This document shows positions 33,457 through 42,657 of a stretch of DNA of 62,863 nt, piece after piece (position 1 is the first letter of the stretch; each line of letters opens with the position of its first letter). The notes beneath the pieces are model-generated. The model saw nothing but the letters and a program-made list of their open reading frames with translations. It was not told the DNA's origin and did no database searches. This DNA is from Acidobacteriota bacterium (GTDB taxonomy: Bacteria > Actinomycetota > Acidimicrobiia > Acidimicrobiales > CADCSY01): contig JAEKLB010000022.1 of assembly GCA_019510095.1 (NCBI GenBank), positions 1-62,863 of the forward strand, given 5' to 3'. The translations under genes were made by a program, and so were the position numbers.

Positions 33457-34137
33457 GTGCCTGACGCCGCTCATGACCTGAAGCCCGAGATCGATTCGCT
33501 GGATCACCTGCGGGCGGGTCTTCGCATCTCCCGGGTGTCGATCATCTGGACCTTGGCGTCGAGCTCACTCGGGCTGGTGATCGGCCTGCGGGCGGGGAGC
33601 CTCGTCTTGGTGGGCTTCGCCCTCACCGGGCTGCTCGACGTGGTCGGGTCGAGCGCGCTCGTGCTCCACTTCCGGCACGCACTCCGCCACGAGACGTTCT
33701 CCGAGCGTCGCGAGCAGCTGGCATTGCGGGTGGTCATCGGCGGCCTGGCCGTCATCGGCCTGGCCGTGGCCGCCCAGAGTGCACGCGAGCTCATCGCCAG
33801 CGGACCAGCGCATTCGGCGCCGAGCGGGGTCGTGCTGGCTGCGCTGTCAGTGGTGGTGCTCGCCGTTCTGGCCGATCGCAAGCGTCGCGTCGCCCGTCTC
33901 ATTCCCAGCCAGGCCTTGCTGGCCGACGGCTGGCTGTCGGGCGTGGGCACCCTCCTCGCTGCCGTCACTGTCGCCGGGACGGGGGCGACGTCGCTGTTCG
34001 GCTGGTGGTGGGTCGATCCCGTCGCCGCGGGTGTGGTGGCGTGTGGGGCGGTCGCCGTCGCAGTCGTGCTGGCGAAGGGTTCGGATGGACCGGACCAACC
34101 CGGCGATCAATCGGGCGTCGGCCCGATCAGCCGGTAG
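33457..34137 (+). CDS. Small CDF-like cation transporter (no C-terminal domain)
   Basis: SLVLVGFALTGLLD, ALLADG, WWWVDPVAA; GTG behind AAGGAGG. Confidence 0.75.
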   Translation: MPDAAHDLKPEIDSLDHLRAGLRISRVSIIWTLASSSLGLVIGLRAGSLVLVGFALTGLLDVVGSSALVLHFRHALRHETFSERREQLALRVVIGGLAVIGLAVAAQSARELIASGPAHSAPSGVVLAALSVVVLAVLADRKRRVARLIPSQALLADGWLSGVGTLLAAVTVAGTGATSLFGWWWVDPVAAGVVACGAVAVAVVLAKGSDGPDQPGDQSGVGPISR

Positions 34138-34805
34138 CCGAGCCCCGGTTCGCTCATGATCGAAGGACGGTCCGGCCCGCTCCCGAGCTTCTTCCGGAGC
34201 TGGGTGATGTGGACGCGGAGCGACTCCGTTTTGCGCAGATCGGTGGTTCCCCAGACCGTGTCGAGCAATGTCCGGTGTGGCAGGAGCCGCCCAGGCCTTA
34301 GCGCGAGGCATTTCAGGAGGGCGAACTCCTTAGCGGTGAGGGTGAGCGGGGCGCCGTCGACCGCCGCGCCATGAGCTGCGGCATCGATCGTCAGGTCGCC
34401 GACCGTGATGAGCCGGGTCTCGCCCACGATCGTCGCCAGCGTCTGACGGTGGCGGAGAGCCACCCGGATACGGGCCAACAGCTCAGGGATCGAGAAGGGC
34501 TTGGTGATGTAGTCGTCGGCGCCCTCGTCGAGCGCGGCCACCTTGCGGGCGTCGTCACCCGCCGCACTCAGCACGAGGATCGGGTTTACGAACCAGCGCC
34601 GTAGCTCGCGACACACCTCGAGGCCGTCGATGTCAGGCAGGCCGAGATCAAGGATGATCAGATCGGGTTCGTCGGTCGAGGCCCGATCGAGCGCGGTTCG
34701 CCCGTCGGCGGCGACGTCCACCACGTACTCGCGAGCTCGGAGGGCAGTCGTGACGATCTCGGCCATCGACCGGTCGTCCTCGACGTAGAGGATCGAGCTA
34801 CGCAA
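34107..34805 (-). CDS. OmpR-family response regulator, KdpE-like
   Basis: YVEDD, IILDLGLPDIDG, DYITKPF, C-terminal wHTH (LRVHITQLRKKL...EPGLGYR). TTG start overlapping the kinase stop is inferred. Confidence 0.9.
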   Translation of the reverse strand: MRSSILYVEDDRSMAEIVTTALRAREYVVDVAADGRTALDRASTDEPDLIILDLGLPDIDGLEVCRELRRWFVNPILVLSAAGDDARKVAALDEGADDYITKPFSIPELLARIRVALRHRQTLATIVGETRLITVGDLTIDAAAHGAAVDGAPLTLTAKEFALLKCLALRPGRLLPHRTLLDTVWGTTDLRKTESLRVHITQLRKKLGSGPDRPSIMSEPGLGYRLIGPTPD

Positions 34806-35835
34806 GCGGAAGCACCACCCGGAAGGCCGACCCGCAGGGCTCACGGTTGCCGGCGTCGATCGTGCCGCCGTGGGCTTCGACGACGGCCTTGCAGATCGCC
34901 AGGCCCACGCCGCTCGTGCCGGGATTGGCGCCGCTGCGGAACGCGTCGAACACCACCGGCAGCTCTGCCGGTGTCATCCCAGGTCCCTCGTCGAGGATCT
35001 CGATCTGCAGCTGGTCGTCCCTCGCCGCCGCGACGATCTGGATGCCCGCGCCGGGTGGCGTGTGCCTCGCCGCGTTCTCGACCAGGTTGGTCACCACCTG
35101 CTCGAGCAGCGCGTGGTCGGCCCTGACGAGCGGGAGCCCATCGGCGATGCTCACCTCGATCCGGATGTCGTGGAGCGGCGCCTGCAGCCGGGTCGTACAC
35201 AGCTCGATCAGCTCGCCGATGTCGACGGCCTGCCGGTTCGGCACGAGCATGTCGGCTTCGATCCGGGCCAGGCTGAGGAGGTTGCCCACCAGCCGCTCGA
35301 GTCGCTCCGCTTCTCGCCGGGCGGTCGTGGCAAGCCCCCGGCGGGTTGCCTGCGTATGGAGCTCCGTGTCCTCCAACTCGGACAAGGCCGCCTGGATGCT
35401 GGCGAGGGGGGTTCGCAGGTCATGCGACACGGCCCGGAGTAAGGCGGCGTGGTGGCGTTCGACTCGCCGCAGCGCCTCGACCCGACTGGTGACGAGCATG
35501 CCGATCAGGAAGACCACTACGAAGAAGACGACGAGGGCGACCACGTCCTGCGCCACCGATACCCGAGGTGACCCGATCGGTTCGAGCAGCAGCGAGAACG
35601 AGACGGTCGCGACGACGGCCACGGCGGCGGCAGCATGCCGCCCGCCGACGACCGCCGTCGCGACCACGGGGACAACGAGGATGAGGGCCTGGGCCGGATG
35701 CCCGAGCCTGGTGTTGACCAACCCGGCCACCACCAGGATGACGCCGGTCGCAGTGGCTCCGCTGACTGCGGCAGCGGTCGACGACATCCCCCGCAAGAAG
35801 ATGCGGGAGCGGTCCGAGTCGCCGCTTCTAGCCAT
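34798..35835 (-). CDS. Sensor histidine kinase, minimal KdpD-like (4-TM DUF4118-like + HisKA + HATPase)
   Basis: SHDLRTPL, NLVENAARH, DEGPG, GVGLAIC; N-terminal four hydrophobic helices only. Confidence 0.88.
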   Translation of the reverse strand: MARSGDSDRSRIFLRGMSSTAAAVSGATATGVILVVAGLVNTRLGHPAQALILVVPVVATAVVGGRHAAAAVAVVATVSFSLLLEPIGSPRVSVAQDVVALVVFFVVVFLIGMLVTSRVEALRRVERHHAALLRAVSHDLRTPLASIQAALSELEDTELHTQATRRGLATTARREAERLERLVGNLLSLARIEADMLVPNRQAVDIGELIELCTTRLQAPLHDIRIEVSIADGLPLVRADHALLEQVVTNLVENAARHTPPGAGIQIVAAARDDQLQIEILDEGPGMTPAELPVVFDAFRSGANPGTSGVGLAICKAVVEAHGGTIDAGNREPCGSAFRVVLPLA

Positions 35836-35847
35836 AAGCGCCTGACG

Positions 35848-36189
35848 TTAGATGGCTGCCTCTCCGGACTCGCCGGTGCGAACTCGCATGAGCGCGTCGA
35901 GCGGCAGCGACCAGATCTTCCCGTCGCCGATCTTGCCGGTGCGGGCCGAGTCGGAGACGACGAGCATTACTTTCTCGGCCTCCGCCGACTCGACGATGAT
36001 GTCGAGTCGGACCTTGGGGACGAAGTCGATCGTGTACTCGGAGCCGCGGAACGTCTCGGTCTTGCCGCCTTGGCGTCCGTAGCCCTGGACCTCGCTGACG
36101 GTGAGGCCGAGAACGCCGGCGGCTCGCAGTGCTTCCTTCACCTCCTCGAGCTTGTGGGGCTTGATGATGGCGGTGATGAGATGGGGCAT
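35848..36189 (-). CDS. glnK: Nitrogen regulatory protein P-II
   Basis: AIIKPHKL, T-loop GYGRQGGKTETFRGSEY (Tyr51 equivalent kept), PKVRL, TGKIGDGKI, RVRTGE; amt linkage. Confidence 0.95.
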   Translation of the reverse strand: MPHLITAIIKPHKLEEVKEALRAAGVLGLTVSEVQGYGRQGGKTETFRGSEYTIDFVPKVRLDIIVESAEAEKVMLVVSDSARTGKIGDGKIWSLPLDALMRVRTGESGEAAI

Positions 36190-36495: not shown

Positions 36496-38064
36496 TCAGA
36501 CCGACGAGTCGATCCTGTCGGAGGTGGGCGGGATCGGCGCCCGACCCGGCAGGCCGGCCGGCGTCATGTACGTCATGCCCATACCGAACTCGACGTGGTA
36601 GGCGGGCGTGCCGTGCTCGTGGATGTCGAGGCCTTCGAGCTCGATGTCCTGGGACACTCGCAGGCCCCATTCGCCGGGGATGGCCTTGATGGCGAACATC
36701 ACGATGGCAGCGAGGCCCCCGACGACGACCAGGCACGACAGGCTGCCGATCGCTTGGGAGACGAGCTGGTCGGTGCCGCCGCCGTAGAACAGGCCGTTGA
36801 CGCCATAGCCGCCGGTGGCGAACAGACCCACGCTGAGCGTGCCCCAGACGCCGGCGAGCATGTGCACCGGTACTGCGCCGATCGGGTCGTCGATGCGGAG
36901 GTGCTCCAGCGCGTCGATCCCGAGCGGCACGACGATGCCGGCGATGGCCCCGATCCACACTGCTCCGGCTGGCGACACCCAATAGCACGGGGCGGTGATG
37001 GCGACCAGGCCGCCGAGGAAGCCGTTGAGCGACATGCCCAGGTCCCACTTCTTTGAGCGGGGGTAGACGAACAGGACGGCGATGAGGCCGCCGGCGCATG
37101 CTGCCAGCGTGGTGTTGGCGGCCACCCGGCCGATGCCCTCGAAGTCCATACCCGACAGGGTCGAGCCGGGGTTGAACCCATACCAACCGAACCAGAGGAT
37201 CACCGCGCCGATCGACGCCATGGTGAGGTCGTGCGGCGGGGTCGGGCCACCGCCGTCGCGCTTGAACTTGCGGCCGAGGCGGGGGCCGAGGGCGATGGCG
37301 CCCATGAGAGCGATGGTGCCGCCAACGGTGTGCACGACGGTCGAGCCGGCGAAGTCACGGAAGAACGTGTCGGGGCTCAGGCTGTGGAACCAGCCCATGG
37401 TCGTGGCCAGCCAGCCGCCCGGCCCCCACACCCAGTGCCCGAAGATCGGATAGAAGAAGCCCGAGACGCAGGTCGAGTAGAGGATGTCGCCCTTGAAGCT
37501 GGTGCGGCCGACCATGGCGCCCGACGTGATGGTCGAGGCGGTGTCGGCGAAGGCGAACTGGAACAGGAAGAACGCCAGGAACGCCACACCGGTGTCGGGC
37601 CCGAGCCCGGCGTAGTCGTAGGTCGACGGGATCCCGTGCAGGAAGAAGTAGGAGTGGCCGATGAGCCCGTTGCCCAGCCCGAACTGGAAGGCGAAGCCGA
37701 ACGCCCAGTAGAGGATGCCGCAGAGGCAGGTGTCGAACACGCACTCCATGAGCACGTTCACCGTTTCCCGGGAGCGGGCGACGCCCGCTTCGAGGGCCAT
37801 GAAGCCGGCCTGCATGAAGAAGACCAGGAAGGCAGTCACCAGCACCCACACCGTGTTGATGGCGCTGACCTGATGGGCGAGCTGCTGGGGAATCGACTCC
37901 TTCGTCTGGGCCCCTGCTGGGGACTCGAAGAGCCAGAAGAAGCCGCGCACCGCCGCCAACACCGTGGCGATGCCGATCATCTTGCCGGCCAGGACCGTGG
38001 CGAAGAGCTTCCGCGTCTCCCACTGCTTGAACTGGCTGAGTTTCCGTCGCATGCCGAGGACCAT
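36496..38064 (-). CDS. amt: Ammonium transporter (Amt) with N-terminal extension
   Basis: FFMQAGF, FQFAFA, DFAGSTVVH, WFGWYGFN, NGFLGGLVAIT, DDPIGAVPVH. Alternative start 38052. Confidence 0.95.
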   Translation of the reverse strand: MVLGMRRKLSQFKQWETRKLFATVLAGKMIGIATVLAAVRGFFWLFESPAGAQTKESIPQQLAHQVSAINTVWVLVTAFLVFFMQAGFMALEAGVARSRETVNVLMECVFDTCLCGILYWAFGFAFQFGLGNGLIGHSYFFLHGIPSTYDYAGLGPDTGVAFLAFFLFQFAFADTASTITSGAMVGRTSFKGDILYSTCVSGFFYPIFGHWVWGPGGWLATTMGWFHSLSPDTFFRDFAGSTVVHTVGGTIALMGAIALGPRLGRKFKRDGGGPTPPHDLTMASIGAVILWFGWYGFNPGSTLSGMDFEGIGRVAANTTLAACAGGLIAVLFVYPRSKKWDLGMSLNGFLGGLVAITAPCYWVSPAGAVWIGAIAGIVVPLGIDALEHLRIDDPIGAVPVHMLAGVWGTLSVGLFATGGYGVNGLFYGGGTDQLVSQAIGSLSCLVVVGGLAAIVMFAIKAIPGEWGLRVSQDIELEGLDIHEHGTPAYHVEFGMGMTYMTPAGLPGRAPIPPTSDRIDSSV

Positions 38065-38140: not shown

Positions 38141-40867
38141 TCAGGGAGTGGTTGCCGCGGCGACCGGCGCATAGGTCCGTCGGCCGAACCACGATCGGCG
38201 GGTCGTCACCCCACCGCAGAGGAAGCGCCGCACGGCCTCCTGGGCGTCGTCGTCGAGCTTGTTCCCGTCGGCGTCGACCAGCTCGAAGCGGTCGTCGGCG
38301 AGGGCATCGGTGGCCACGATGGTGGCGGCGACCACCTCGACATGGGCCGCGGCGAACGCGGTGGCGATGACGTGCAGCAGCCCGGGCTTGTCGGCCGCCG
38401 TCACCTCGCAGACGGTGTGCCACGGGGACGACGCGTTGTCGAAGGCAATCGTCACGTCGGCGAGGAGCGGGCTCTCCAACGGCTGGTCGAACGCAGCGGC
38501 GACGTCGCGCTCGAGCCCGACACGGTCGGGTGCGATCGCCGCTCGCACGAGAAACGACTCAAGGGCGATGCGGTCGGGCCACGTGGCCACCACCGCCTCC
38601 ACCACGTCGAGGTCGTGGTCGGCGAGGACACCCGTCACCACGGCCAGCAGGCCGTGCCGGTCGCGGGCGGCGACATCGACGTACCACGTGTCGGGTTCGC
38701 CGTTCGGGCCGACCCGGACGCGGGCCTCGCGGCCGTGCGGTGGGGGATTGAGGAGCTTGGCGTGGCGGGCCATTGCCGAGGGCTCCTGGCGGATCACGTA
38801 GGGCCGGGGGGCACGGGCGAGGCGGTCGCGTACGGCCTCGTCGTCGCTCGCCAAGGCAATTGCCTCCGTGCGGCGGCGCCCGATGAGGTTGCGGGCCTCC
38901 TCGCCGGTCAGCTGGTCATGGGCGAGCACCTCCTGAACGAGCCGGTGCAGCTCGCGCAGCCGAGTGAGCTCCCAGGTCGGGCGGTCGCCGTTAGTCAAGG
39001 CCGACAGGACGTAGAGGGCGCGTGCCCGCTCGGGTGTGTCGAGGTGTGACGCCAGCTGGGTGACGGCCTCCTCGCTGAACGCCCCGGCACGCAGGGCGGC
39101 AGCCCACGGCAGGTGCCGGTCGTCGATGAGCGAGCCGATCTCGGCTTCGGCCTCGGTGCCCACGCCCAGCCGCCGCACCACCGCCCGGGCCGTGTCGCCC
39201 GGCGCCGGTTCGTGCTCGAGGGCGTCGACCAGCAGCAGCGCGAGGACGAGCCAGTCGGGATGCAGCAGGCGTTCGGCCTCGATGGCGACGGGGGCACCGG
39301 CGTCGAGCCGCCGGAGTCGCTCGAGGGCGGGGAAGCGGTACGACTCGAGCTGGTCGATCGCCATCGACCCGGAGCGTCGGGTCTCGAGCGCCCGGGCGAG
39401 ATCGGGAGCAGCGGCGGCGAGAACACCGGTGGTGTCGAGGAACCGCCACGATCGGCCGTTGCCCCGCTCGATCAGGTCGAGCAGGTCGTCGAGGGCGTCA
39501 CGCCGCCAGCGGAGGGCCGATTCCGGAAGACCAGTCAGCCATTCGACAAGTTCCCGGCCTGGCTCTCGGCGGCCGACTGCGACCGCGGCCTGGAGCGCCA
39601 GCTCCAGGCTGGCGGACTCCGGTGGGCGGGCAGCCAGATCGACCATGTCGTCGGTGACCCCCAGCCAGCCGCCGGGCGGCATGACGTCGGTGACGTCGAC
39701 CTGGGCCCGGCGGGCGGCATTCAGCCGCGTGTAGCGGAGCTTGAGGATCTGGGGTGTGGCGAGCGTGGTCACCAGCACGACGAGCAGCAGCGCGGCATAG
39801 AGGTTGTCGTCGAGCACGCCGTTGGAGAGGCCGATGGTGGCGAAGATCAGGCCGACCTCGCCGCGCGGGAGCATGCCGATGCCGATGAGCAGCTTGTCGC
39901 CAGGGCTGCCGGCGGCGCCAAGTGGTGACACGAGCTTGCCGGCGACCGCGGCCAGCAGGAGGAGCGCCGCATCGCGCAGCACGGTGGCGTGGCCGAAGGC
40001 GCCGATCTGGGCATCGATGCCGATCTGGAGGAAGAAGACCGGGATGAAGAGGTGGCCGACGGGCGCCAGCTCGCGGCGGATCCGGTCGGACTGGTCGCTG
40101 CGGGTCAGGGCGAGCCCGGCGACGAAGGCGCCCACGATGGGGGCCAGCTTGGCGGCGTCGGCCACCCGGGCGAAGGCGAGGGTGAAGGCCAGCGCCAGGG
40201 CGACCATGGTGCCGGTCGAGCGGGAGAGCCGGGCAACCAGGGCGAAGAGGGGCCCGCTCAGCCGCAGGCCGACGGCGCCCCCGACGACCAGGAAGGCGAC
40301 GGCGACGCCGACGATGCCGGCGACCGACAGGGCCGAGACCGAACCCTCGGTGACGAGTCGCACGACGACGGTGAGCACGACGAGGCCCATGACGTCGTCG
40401 GCCACCGCGGCGCCGAGCACGATCCTCGCCTCGGTGGTGGCCAGGGCGCGGAGGTCGCCGAACACGCGAGCAGTGATGCCCACGCTGGTCGCCGTGAGGG
40501 CGGCGCCGACGAACAGCGATGTCTTGAAGTCGTCGCCGATGAGCTCCATGGCCCCGATGCCGAGCACCATCGGGCAGATCACGCCGACCGTCGCCACCAG
40601 CAACGAGGCGCGTCCGACCTTGCTCAGCTCGCCGAGATCCATCTCCATGCCGACCTCGAGCAGCAGGAGGATCACACCGATCTCGCCGAGGGTGCGCAGC
40701 ACCTCGTCGTGGTGTCCGACCAGGCCGAGCATCGAGGGACCGACCAGCACGCCGGCGACGATCTCGCCGACCACGGCCGGCACGCCGACGCGCTCGGCCA
40801 GCTCGGCCGCGACCTTGGCGGCGACGAGCACGATGAGGATGTCGGTGAGAACGGTGGTGATGTCCAT
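38141..40867 (-). CDS. Cation:proton antiporter (CPA2-like) fused to a degenerate GlnD-like HD region and two ACT domains
   Basis: Antiporter motifs GEIGVILLL, ATSVGIT, AVADDVMG, GMLPRGEVG in about aa 1-378; then LALLLVDALE (HD position degenerate) and ACT-like AARDRHGLL and AADKPGLL. Confidence 0.85.
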   Translation of the reverse strand: MDITTVLTDILIVLVAAKVAAELAERVGVPAVVGEIVAGVLVGPSMLGLVGHHDEVLRTLGEIGVILLLLEVGMEMDLGELSKVGRASLLVATVGVICPMVLGIGAMELIGDDFKTSLFVGAALTATSVGITARVFGDLRALATTEARIVLGAAVADDVMGLVVLTVVVRLVTEGSVSALSVAGIVGVAVAFLVVGGAVGLRLSGPLFALVARLSRSTGTMVALALAFTLAFARVADAAKLAPIVGAFVAGLALTRSDQSDRIRRELAPVGHLFIPVFFLQIGIDAQIGAFGHATVLRDAALLLLAAVAGKLVSPLGAAGSPGDKLLIGIGMLPRGEVGLIFATIGLSNGVLDDNLYAALLLVVLVTTLATPQILKLRYTRLNAARRAQVDVTDVMPPGGWLGVTDDMVDLAARPPESASLELALQAAVAVGRREPGRELVEWLTGLPESALRWRRDALDDLLDLIERGNGRSWRFLDTTGVLAAAAPDLARALETRRSGSMAIDQLESYRFPALERLRRLDAGAPVAIEAERLLHPDWLVLALLLVDALEHEPAPGDTARAVVRRLGVGTEAEAEIGSLIDDRHLPWAAALRAGAFSEEAVTQLASHLDTPERARALYVLSALTNGDRPTWELTRLRELHRLVQEVLAHDQLTGEEARNLIGRRRTEAIALASDDEAVRDRLARAPRPYVIRQEPSAMARHAKLLNPPPHGREARVRVGPNGEPDTWYVDVAARDRHGLLAVVTGVLADHDLDVVEAVVATWPDRIALESFLVRAAIAPDRVGLERDVAAAFDQPLESPLLADVTIAFDNASSPWHTVCEVTAADKPGLLHVIATAFAAAHVEVVAATIVATDALADDRFELVDADGNKLDDDAQEAVRRFLCGGVTTRRSWFGRRTYAPVAAATTP

Positions 40868-40888: not shown

Positions 40889-40923
40889 GATCGGGCGGGT
40901 GCGGAGCCCGCACCCGCCCGATC
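40889..40923. terminator. Perfect 16-bp GC-rich stem-loop between amt and the antiporter fusion (terminator or mRNA-stabilising hairpin)
   Basis: GATCGGGCGGGTGCGG-AGC-CCGCACCCGCCCGATC; no U-tract. Confidence 0.6.
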
Positions 40924-40948: not shown

Positions 40949-42490
40949 CTAGAGCGAGACGGTCTCGTTGGTGGGGCTGCCGCCGGCGTGGGCGACGAGC
41001 ACGTCTGCTTCCATGAACTCCGGATAGGCAAGGGCGCCCATCTCGGGCATGTCCATGCCGGCGATCTCCATCTCGGCCGGCGGGCGGATGCCACCCTTCA
41101 TGACCGCGTTCTGGATCTTGAAGAAGGCATAGGCCACCCCGAGGATGACCGTCCAGATGACGACCGCGCCCAGTGCCTGAGCACCCAGCTGGCCGAGACC
41201 GGGATTCATGCCGTAGAAGATGCCGGTGACGCCCTTGGCGGCGGCCGAACCTTCCGTGGTGAGGTTCCAACCGGCGCCATAGTGGCCGTTCGAGAACAGG
41301 CCGATGCACAGGACGCCGAAGGTGCCGCACACGCCGTGCACCGCGATGGCGCCGACCGGATCATCGACGTGCAGCTTGGTGTCGATGAACACTGCGGCGA
41401 ACACCACGAGCACACCGGCGAGGGCACCGATCAGGGCAGCGGCCCACGGATCGACGAACGCGCACGGGGCCGTGATGGCGACGAGGCCGGCGAGCATGCC
41501 GTTCACCATCATCCCCGGATCGGGCTTGCCCCAGCGCCACATCACCCAGAACATCGCGGACGTTGCGCCGAAGGCGGCGGCGAGCGCGGTGTTGGTGGCG
41601 ACCATGGCGAACTGGATGTCGGTCGCCGCCAGGGTGGAGGCGGCGTTGAAGCCGAACCAACCGAACAGCAGGATGAAGCAGCCGAGCATGGCCATCGGGA
41701 TGTGGTGGCCGGGCAGTGTGTTCGAGGAGCCGTCGCGGTTGTACTTGCCGATGCGGGGCCCGAGCACGAGGGCGCCCGCCAAACCGGCGACGCCGCCCAC
41801 CGCGTGCACCACGCCGGAACCGGCGAAGTCCACGTAGCCGAGGCCGAGGTGCATGCTGTTGCCGACCTGGGCCAGCCAGCCGCCACCCCAGGTCCACGCG
41901 CCGAACAGCGGGTAGTACACGGCGCCACAGAACACGCCCCAGCCCACGAAGGCGTTCCACTTCCACCGCTCGGCCATGGCGCCGGTCGGGATCGTGGCCG
42001 TTGTGTCCATGAAGGCCACCATGTAGAGGAAGAAGCCGGCAACTGCCGCGCCACCGCTCTTGCCGATGTCGCCGAGGGCGAAGCCGCCCTTCCACAGGAA
42101 CACCCATTGGCCGGAGCCGATCAGGCTGCTGCCAACGGCGTGGTTGTAGCCGATCAACGAGGTCGAGTAGCCGCCGAACATGAAGGCGTAGCCGACGAGG
42201 AAGTAGCCGACGAAGCCCAGGCCGAAGATGGCGAAGTTCGTCGACACCACGTGGGCGGCGTGCTTGGCCCGGCAAAAGCCGGTTTCGACCAGCGCGAAAC
42301 CGGCCTGCATGAAGATGACGAGGACGGCGCCGATGACGACCCAGAGCAGGTTGGTCTGCGTGCCGAGCGTCTTGACCGCCTCGTCGACCGTCTTGACCGT
42401 GGGGGCATCGGACTGGGCGAAGGCGGTGCCCGACATGGCGAGGAGGGCGGTGGTACCGAGCCCGAAGGCGACGGCGAGCTTGCGGCGCAT
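40949..42490 (-). CDS. amt: Ammonium transporter (Amt), second paralog
   Basis: IFMQAGF, DFAGSGVVH, FGWFGFN, NGMLAGLVAIT, DDPVGAIAVH; signal-like N-terminus ending AFAQ; GAAGGAG RBS. Confidence 0.95.
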   Translation of the reverse strand: MRRKLAVAFGLGTTALLAMSGTAFAQSDAPTVKTVDEAVKTLGTQTNLLWVVIGAVLVIFMQAGFALVETGFCRAKHAAHVVSTNFAIFGLGFVGYFLVGYAFMFGGYSTSLIGYNHAVGSSLIGSGQWVFLWKGGFALGDIGKSGGAAVAGFFLYMVAFMDTTATIPTGAMAERWKWNAFVGWGVFCGAVYYPLFGAWTWGGGWLAQVGNSMHLGLGYVDFAGSGVVHAVGGVAGLAGALVLGPRIGKYNRDGSSNTLPGHHIPMAMLGCFILLFGWFGFNAASTLAATDIQFAMVATNTALAAAFGATSAMFWVMWRWGKPDPGMMVNGMLAGLVAITAPCAFVDPWAAALIGALAGVLVVFAAVFIDTKLHVDDPVGAIAVHGVCGTFGVLCIGLFSNGHYGAGWNLTTEGSAAAKGVTGIFYGMNPGLGQLGAQALGAVVIWTVILGVAYAFFKIQNAVMKGGIRPPAEMEIAGMDMPEMGALAYPEFMEADVLVAHAGGSPTNETVSL

Positions 42491-42657
42491 CAGCACGACT
42501 CCTTCCATCGGGCTGGCCGGGTGGCGGGACGACACATGGGCAGGTTCCTTTCAGGGGCCGGTAGCTGAACGCCGGGGCAGGGGTCTTTCTGACCTGTCCC
42601 TGAACGTAGGGACAGCCGATCACGGGTCTGTCTCCGGGTTGTAAAGGCTGCCGTTCC

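Follow-up and report, generated by a model that had tools for sequence, protein, structure and literature searches.

A conserved fusion of a NapA-type antiporter with a degenerate GlnD back-half, encoded beside ammonium transporter genes in Acidimicrobiia

The stretch of DNA analysed here, called the window in the following, comprises 62,863 nucleotides (contig JAEKLB010000022.1 of the assembly GCA_019510095.1, deposited as an Acidobacteriota bacterium and placed by GTDB in the Acidimicrobiales) and carries on its minus strand a gene, P0001, in which a cation:proton antiporter is continued in frame by a diverged relative of the back half of GlnD. To judge from the homologues collected here, this fusion is a conserved, previously undescribed protein family of Acidimicrobiia. 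In our reading, to which we would give about an even chance of being right, the antiporter, a member of the CPA2 group, would be gated by a ligand that reports nitrogen status, most likely glutamine, acting through the pair of ACT domains at the end of the tail. Every functional claim made below is drawn from homology and from gene neighbourhoods in uncultured organisms, and on the same basis we infer which ligand is bound, which cation is transported and in which direction control runs. A full-text literature search returned no paper combining GlnD, an antiporter and an ACT domain, and nothing relevant on antiporters, ACT domains, Amt and P-II together, in agreement with an earlier, sequence-only reading of this locus whose author knew no description of such an architecture. 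The fusion gene and its parts are as follows.

38141..40867, minus strand: fusion gene P0001, 908 aa, ATG start, TGA stop
39698..40867, minus strand: NapA-type CPA2 antiporter domain, aa 1-390, about 13 transmembrane helices (Pfam PF00999, PDB NapA, Foldseek)
38243..39679, minus strand: GlnD-homologous cytoplasmic module, aa 397-875 (hhalign, TIGR01693, AlphaFold model with pLDDT 87)
38981..39373, minus strand: degenerate HD domain, about aa 499-629 (metal-ligand positions replaced)
38492..38725, minus strand: ACT domain 1, aa 715-792 (RDRHGLLA; ATWPD motif; model fold, hhalign, weak RelA ACT match)
38213..38452, minus strand: ACT domain 2, aa 806-885 (SPWHTVCE, ADKPGLLH; Pfam ACT, hhalign)

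The antiporter half belongs to the CPA2/NapA structural family. In particular, the Pfam model Na_H_Exchanger (PF00999) spans aa 16-372 with 214.9 bits against a gathering score of 26.2 (E 2e-63), and the CPA2 subfamily model TIGR00932 of NCBIfam reaches 175 bits (E 2e-51), which marks the protein as homologous but lies under the curated cut-off of 238.3. The sequence-only reading had recognised CPA2 motifs in this half, and the assignment can now be narrowed, the domain being more specifically NapA-like than Kef-like. Namely, a profile of the family run against the PDB matches NapA (4bwz) at E 2e-81 and KefC only at E 3e-15, and the antiporter core is about 38% identical to NapA along the whole transmembrane domain. 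A residue-level alignment pairs the ion site of P0001 with that of NapA position by position: T127/S128 with T126/S127, D157/D158 with D156/D157, K311 with K305, and R335/E337 with R331/E333. Residues D157, D158, K311, R335 and E337 are invariant in 109 of 109 full-length homologues, and T127 and S128 across a 66-sequence alignment; because these ion-site residues do not vary, the transporter is under purifying selection for its transport role. The AlphaFold model of the full-length protein (mean predicted local distance difference test score, pLDDT, 87.6) superimposes on inward-facing NapA (5bz2) with a Foldseek template-modelling (TM) score of 0.90 normalised to NapA and a root-mean-square deviation of 2.9, and Foldseek with the full model finds transporter matches only. 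In other words, the NapA fold, the DD motif on its crossed unwound helices and the lysine that is its salt-bridge partner are all in place, by Foldseek, by alignment and by residues in 109 of 109 proteins. A DD-plus-Lys signature marks electrogenic CPA antiporters, and this half should be an electrogenic NapA/NhaA-type exchanger of one cation for 2H+. Cation selectivity is not readable from sequence; the substrate may be Na+, K+ or possibly NH4+.

The second half of the protein is related to GlnD. An alignment of 109 tails was compared by hhalign with one of 12 true GlnDs from Acidimicrobiia, that of the window's own genome included, and aa 397-875 proved colinear with residues 300-756 of the 771 residues of that genome's GlnD (probability 100%, E 3.9e-50), a region made up of the linker following the nucleotidyltransferase domain, the HD domain, ACT1 and ACT2. 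The NCBIfam GlnD model TIGR01693 agrees: its positions 371-843 of 850 match aa 451-881 at E 6e-29. Both comparisons thus begin well inside GlnD (at 371 of 850 and at 300 of 771), and neither the profile nor hhalign finds anything in P0001 that corresponds to the nucleotidyltransferase domain, the N-terminus being the transporter. An HD-like region followed by two ACT domains, with no nucleotidyltransferase domain, is what the sequence-only reading had described, and the strings on which it relied (WRFLDTTGVLAAAAPDL, LALLLVDALE, RALYVLS, RDRHGLL and ADKPGLL) are all present in P0001. The second ACT domain is also recognised by Pfam (aa 818-879, 40.4 bits), the model shows two beta-alpha-beta-beta-alpha units, and both ACT domains keep the D-x-x-G-L-L loop.

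In its HD domain the tail departs from the enzyme. From the string LALLLVDALE the sequence-only reading had supposed a dead HD site, and the alignment bears this out: the position of the HD dyad is occupied in P0001 by V547-D548, and the dyad histidine is never a histidine in 109 of 109 fusion proteins (V, A, L or I in its place). The aspartate position of the dyad holds E (68) or D (40) among the 109, one further histidine position is mixed (Y in 48, H in 45), the other histidine ligands are lost, and the final HD aspartate of GlnD falls in a deletion, while all six residues of the site are invariant in the 12 true GlnDs. Since none of the 109 has this histidine, GlnD enzyme activity can be ruled out for the tail, and the HD domain is, as far as its residues tell, a conserved, catalytically dead scaffold. 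What is more, the tail scores 100.9 bits with TIGR01693 against an equivalog cut-off of 519.4, so that of the four defining features tested it lacks three (the nucleotidyltransferase domain, the HD ligands and a score above the cut-off) and by these measures the fusion stands outside the GlnD family. Identity between the tail and the GlnDs of Acidimicrobiia is no more than about 23-28%, and in a pairwise BLAST comparison with the GlnD of its own genome the ACT domains alone matched, the HD region becoming visible only by profile-profile comparison. The earlier proposal that a transporter has replaced the catalytic N-terminus of GlnD therefore fits as a description of the architecture but not as an account of a recent swap, such low identity indicating an old, diverged derivative.

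A structure search with the tail neither adds to nor contradicts the profile evidence. Namely, Foldseek with a model of the tail alone (pLDDT 87) gave weak matches to class-II tRNA nucleotidyltransferases, in their helical body (TM score about 0.4), and to generic ACT pairs, those of the regulatory domains of aspartate kinase, SerB2 and IlvA. The PDB search with the family profile returned no GlnD structure, its matches being NapA, KefC and, weakly, the ACT domain of RelA. Pfam and NCBIfam scans at E<=1 gave no match to a TrkA_N/KTN domain, the KefB and KefC models covering aa 4-389 only.

Could the fusion be an assembly chimera or a decaying pseudogene? The genome of the window (2.95 Mb, 97% complete) is indeed fragmented into 227 contigs, and the sequence-only reading had itself named a chimeric join as one of the outcomes that would undo its case. 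There is practically no chance of this, and we reject it. Namely, the reading frame is uninterrupted across all 908 aa, M1 and the N-terminus are kept across an alignment of 66 homologues, the antiporter and tail halves are both strongly conserved, and the model is confident across the junction. One-genome-per-species collections yielded 73 loci, all from metagenome-assembled genomes that for the most part bear names such as Acidimicrobiales, Microthrixaceae, Iamiaceae or Acidimicrobiaceae. In each of the 67 that can be judged, the tail continues the CPA2 domain in frame, in independent assemblies. The antiporter-plus-ACT architecture of about 900 aa fills more than 120 clusters at 90% identity, of similar length, which the databases name just 'cation:proton antiporter' or 'KefB / ACT domain protein'. 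An exhaustive profile search at E<=1e-30 gave 574 clusters at 50% identity; in the full-length members the tail starts at residue 390-420, and many of the shorter matches set in within the last transmembrane helix and are fragments. As for its spread, evenly drawn samples of the window's class, 150 genomes in all, include 18 with the fusion, and about 14 genomes placed in other classes of the phylum give matches that span the junction.

The tail also occurs by itself. Two loci hold genuine free-standing copies, one of 499 aa directly after a 178-aa winged-helix gene and without a transporter (L130), the other of 523 aa following an unrelated gene (L129), and from these it follows that the tail is an autonomous module that can act without the transporter. 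A third candidate, P0112 on contig L114, was rejected as a standalone tail: amt and CPA2 sequences lie there in many frameshifted pieces, probably a sequencing artefact. A divergent relative of 848 aa, P0259, carries the tail at residues 314-832, and its N-terminal 300 residues, rich in Ala and Gly, resemble a degenerate CPA2-like membrane domain in which no DD motif is obvious; transport may have been lost in this member of the family.

In the window, the fusion gene lies in a tightly packed row on the minus strand that reads amt (P0004), P0001, amt (P0002), winged-helix gene, P-II gene, kinase and response regulator, with the following coordinates.

40949..42535, minus strand: amtA-type ammonium transporter P0004, conserved upstream partner of the fusion (Pfam E 2e-99)
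40889..40923, minus strand: perfect GC-rich hairpin after the amtA stop and before the start of the fusion, stem about 16 bp
36496..38064, minus strand: second ammonium transporter P0002 (Pfam E 3e-113), 37% identical to P0004
36189..36494, minus strand: winged-helix protein, 101 aa, Trans_reg_C only (Pfam E 6e-10)
35848..36189, minus strand: P-II (GlnK-type) protein, 113 aa (Pfam P-II, 92 bits), T-loop Tyr retained
34107..35835, minus strand: two-component pair, kinase 34798-35835 and OmpR-family response regulator 34107-34844

The placement of the fusion between two amt genes, noted in the sequence-only reading together with the suggestion to survey it across relatives, holds well beyond this window, and an absence of nitrogen genes around the homologues, which that reading had listed among the outcomes that would undo it, is not what the relatives show. 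The fusion is tightly coupled genetically to one Amt clade, whose members we call amtA-type if they are orthologues of P0004 with at least 55% identity. Namely, such a gene is the immediate upstream neighbour, in the same orientation, in 47 of the 55 loci with enough upstream sequence, and directly downstream in three more (L111, L112, L116), while across the sampled genomes it occurs in 16 of the 18 that have the fusion and in 11 of the 132 others. Where at least 6 kb is available on each side, an amt gene is found in every case (31/31), and within 10 kb in the same loci there is a P-II gene in 15, a winged-helix gene in 19 and a true glnD in 3. Among 16 more divergent loci from the sample of the class, amt is adjacent or nearby in seven, and three have a canonical amt-glnK-glnD operon no more than a few kb away; over all loci, such an operon adjoins the fusion in several genomes. 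In a group of Microthrixaceae loci (L078, L087, L088, L095, L109, L120 and L122) an amtB-type gene follows about 5 kb downstream of the fusion, and after it come a tandem pair of P-II genes and another winged-helix gene.

The remaining features of the row deserve a brief comment. The window kinase has the domain order DUF4118-HisKA-HATPase, its best NCBIfam match being the C-terminal part of KdpD without the N-terminal sensor domains of that protein, and the response regulator is KdpE/MtrA-like; no kdp genes were noticed in the examined part of the window. We rejected the pair as a part of the system, for it stands beside the fusion elsewhere only in the closest relative, L056. The 81-nt spacer between amtA and the fusion folds at -46.5 kcal/mol, and hairpins with stems of 13-21 bp and differing sequence occupy the equivalent position in 14 of 14 related loci inspected. 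The element could be a terminator or attenuator without a U tract, or else an mRNA-stabilising element, and given the hairpin the amtA and fusion genes may have separate or attenuated transcripts. A consensus scan for promoters and terminators gave nothing exceeding shuffled expectation.

The same genome holds the complete enzyme as well. A full GlnD that passes the cut-off with 594 bits, sought at the suggestion of the sequence-only reading, is encoded on contig C29, and contig C18 carries a further glnK-amt pair; with both of these elsewhere in the genome, the tail is dispensable for the modification of P-II. On contig C34, at about 521-1210 on the minus strand, there is moreover a free 229-aa protein with two GlnD-type ACT domains and an ATWPDG motif, 37% identical to aa 674-886 of P0001 against 28% to the genome's own GlnD. 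Its gene ends a nirB / nasA-like nitrate-assimilation operon (NirB with 1119 bits, above the cut-off), directly downstream of a gene for a nasA/nasC-like molybdopterin oxidoreductase, and with this second example the GlnD-type ACT module recurs in nitrogen-assimilation settings. Its role may be to sense nitrogen status on behalf of nitrate assimilation.

How might the parts work together? We propose that P0001 is an active NapA-type cation/proton antiporter with a derivative of the GlnD back half as its cytoplasmic C-terminus. The ACT pair would bind a small ligand that reflects nitrogen status, in all likelihood the glutamine that GlnD responds to, and the rigid helical scaffold derived from the HD domain would relay this binding to the transporter dimer and so switch antiport on or off. 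The exchange of Na+, K+ or possibly NH4+ for H+ would in this way be matched to the uptake of ammonium via the co-encoded AmtA, the sensing being direct and bypassing the relay from GlnD to P-II. The choice of glutamine leans on what is known of GlnD itself: its activity is set by a single glutamine site, and without the ACT domains it does not respond to glutamine (PMC4285133; PMC11190351, citing Zhang et al. 2010).

A P-II gene in the row of the window invites a different idea, namely that the tail still docks GlnK and that GlnK then switches antiport, much as it plugs AmtB. GlnD does bind P-II, and P-II proteins regulate membrane transporters by direct contact (PMC4285133), so that the 15 well-flanked loci with a P-II gene within 10 kb could be taken in this sense. 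That said, GlnD handles P-II at the active sites of its nucleotidyltransferase and HD domains, of which the first is absent here and the second degenerate, and about half of the well-flanked loci have no P-II gene, for which reasons we consider P-II gating unlikely.

The winged-helix gene suggests another possibility. It lies directly upstream of the fusion in 11 of the 16 divergent loci, where it is the sole constant partner, and directly upstream of the transporter-free tail of L130, besides the 19 well-flanked loci and the window itself. The protein may be a partner of the tail. If so, the tail might bind or release it according to nitrogen status or the state of the transporter and thereby control the amt genes; in the fused form it would be sequestered at the membrane, and the antiporter would serve as a transceptor. 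The invariant ion-binding residues argue, however, that transport itself has been selected, and the winged-helix gene is missing near many loci, so that we see only a small probability for this arrangement, which can coexist with gating by a ligand. Orthologues of the winged-helix protein elsewhere are longer than the one in the window, at 165-225 aa by crude calls of open reading frames and 178 aa in L130, and in some of them a receiver-like N-terminal remnant can be made out (L041:7843-8412, L130:484-1020).

Finally, the ACT pair could sense some other metabolite, such as branched-chain or other amino acids, the antiporter then following the supply of amino acids or energy in general. As amino-acid sensors, ACT domains are generic, as the Foldseek matches of the tail to aspartate kinase, SerB2 and IlvA illustrate, and in nine of the 16 divergent loci the neighbours of the fusion are leuA, leuCD, leuB and ilvE, assigned by eye from translations without the use of hidden Markov models. 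In three loci (L041, L042 and L044) the fusion is followed by genes for hydantoinase/oxoprolinase A and B, likewise assigned by eye. Against a different ligand it can be said that the pair is by profile specifically of the GlnD type, that the dominant and phyletically correlated partner is Amt, that the paralogous pair of the same genome sits in a nitrate-assimilation operon, and that the leu genes may be mere conserved chromosomal neighbours. All in all, we regard it as improbable.

Several observations nevertheless weigh against an antiporter gated by glutamine. ACT domains bind many different amino acids, and because of this, and because the glutamine site of GlnD is structurally unmapped, the identity of the ligand is not readable from sequence; the determinants of glutamine binding in GlnD have been described as undefined (PMC11190351). 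In nine of the 16 divergent loci there is no amt gene within about 9 kb. The co-occurrence of the fusion with amtA has a Fisher p of 1e-12 that ignores kinship among the genomes. Free-standing tails exist, one of them paired with a winged-helix gene, and together with the recurrence of that gene they weaken a picture in which the fusion is a gated antiporter only. What is more, an exchanger of 2H+ for one cation imports protons, so that the charge and acid load of NH4+ uptake, which the sequence-only reading had imagined it to balance, would not obviously be offset. A more sensible valve for ammonium homeostasis would be one that exports NH4+ or K+ in exchange for H+, a point that is speculation on our part. 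One can go a step further and imagine that amtA, the fusion and the winged-helix gene form an Acidimicrobiia nitrogen circuit that bypasses GlnD and P-II, in which the tail reads glutamine, gates an NH4+ or K+/H+ safety-valve antiporter working opposite AmtA, and captures or releases a regulator of the amt genes, being transporter and transceptor in one; taken as a whole, this circuit strikes us as rather unlikely.

It is instructive to set the fusion beside systems that are better understood. With NapA of Thermus thermophilus (PDB 4bwz, 5bz2) it shares fold, sequence and a one-to-one ion site, but NapA has no cytoplasmic regulatory domain, whereas the fusion adds about 520 residues. With GlnD it shares a homologous tail, colinear with everything after the nucleotidyltransferase domain, and an amt/glnK setting, actinobacterial glnD being normally found within amtB-glnK-glnD operons (PMC4285133); it differs in lacking the nucleotidyltransferase domain, in having lost the HD ligands in all 109 proteins, in being joined to a transporter, and in that a true GlnD is retained in the genome. 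The next-best structural matches for the transmembrane core are exchangers of the KefC/KefB, SLC9C1 and SOS1 type, in which a CPA core is likewise set by a C-terminal ligand-binding or autoinhibitory domain. The regulatory domain of the fusion is, unlike theirs, a relic of GlnD, unrelated to KTN/RCK, to CNBD or to the SOS1 tail, and its core is far nearer to NapA than to KefC.

Two further comparisons concern ammonium and the ACT domains. AmhT of alkaliphilic Bacillus, a CPA2 member with a separate, KTN-type regulatory partner, is a K+/H+ antiporter. It also figures, in a passage of PMC9040632, as an NH4+/H+ antiporter, which makes it a precedent for a role in ammonium homeostasis; AmhT has no GlnD-like tail and is likened to the fusion by description, not by sequence. 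The plant ACT-repeat (ACR) proteins and the ACT-regulated amylase AMA2 use GlnD-type ACT domains as presumed glutamine sensors (PMC11190351, PMC12702975). They resemble the fusion in reusing these domains outside GlnD, and the free ACT pair of contig C34 shares their layout, but they are soluble and have neither a transporter nor an HD remnant. The principle of a ligand-gated CPA antiporter is, in other words, known, and what would appear to be undescribed is a pseudoenzyme derived from GlnD as its sensor.

Control of pH, volume and cation balance is the task of CPA antiporters, and very few of the bacterial ones have a known allosteric input, the textbook case being Kef, in which glutathione adducts gate through the KTN domains. 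Here, a GlnD-derived sensor that has lost both catalytic functions appears on a NapA core and has long been retained beside an ammonium transporter. If the tail does read glutamine, the fusion would constitute a direct metabolic link between nitrogen assimilation and ion and proton homeostasis, and, if true, a natural case in which a pseudoenzyme domain has been turned into a transmission scaffold. The fusion also lends itself to experiment, NapA being a structural model system and the tail one that folds confidently in the model and exists free as well, and the tail could be of use in finding where GlnD-type ACT pairs bind glutamine, a site so far unmapped. Lastly, the carriers include Microthrixaceae and other Acidimicrobiia, so that a coupling of this kind, if it operates, may possibly have environmental relevance.

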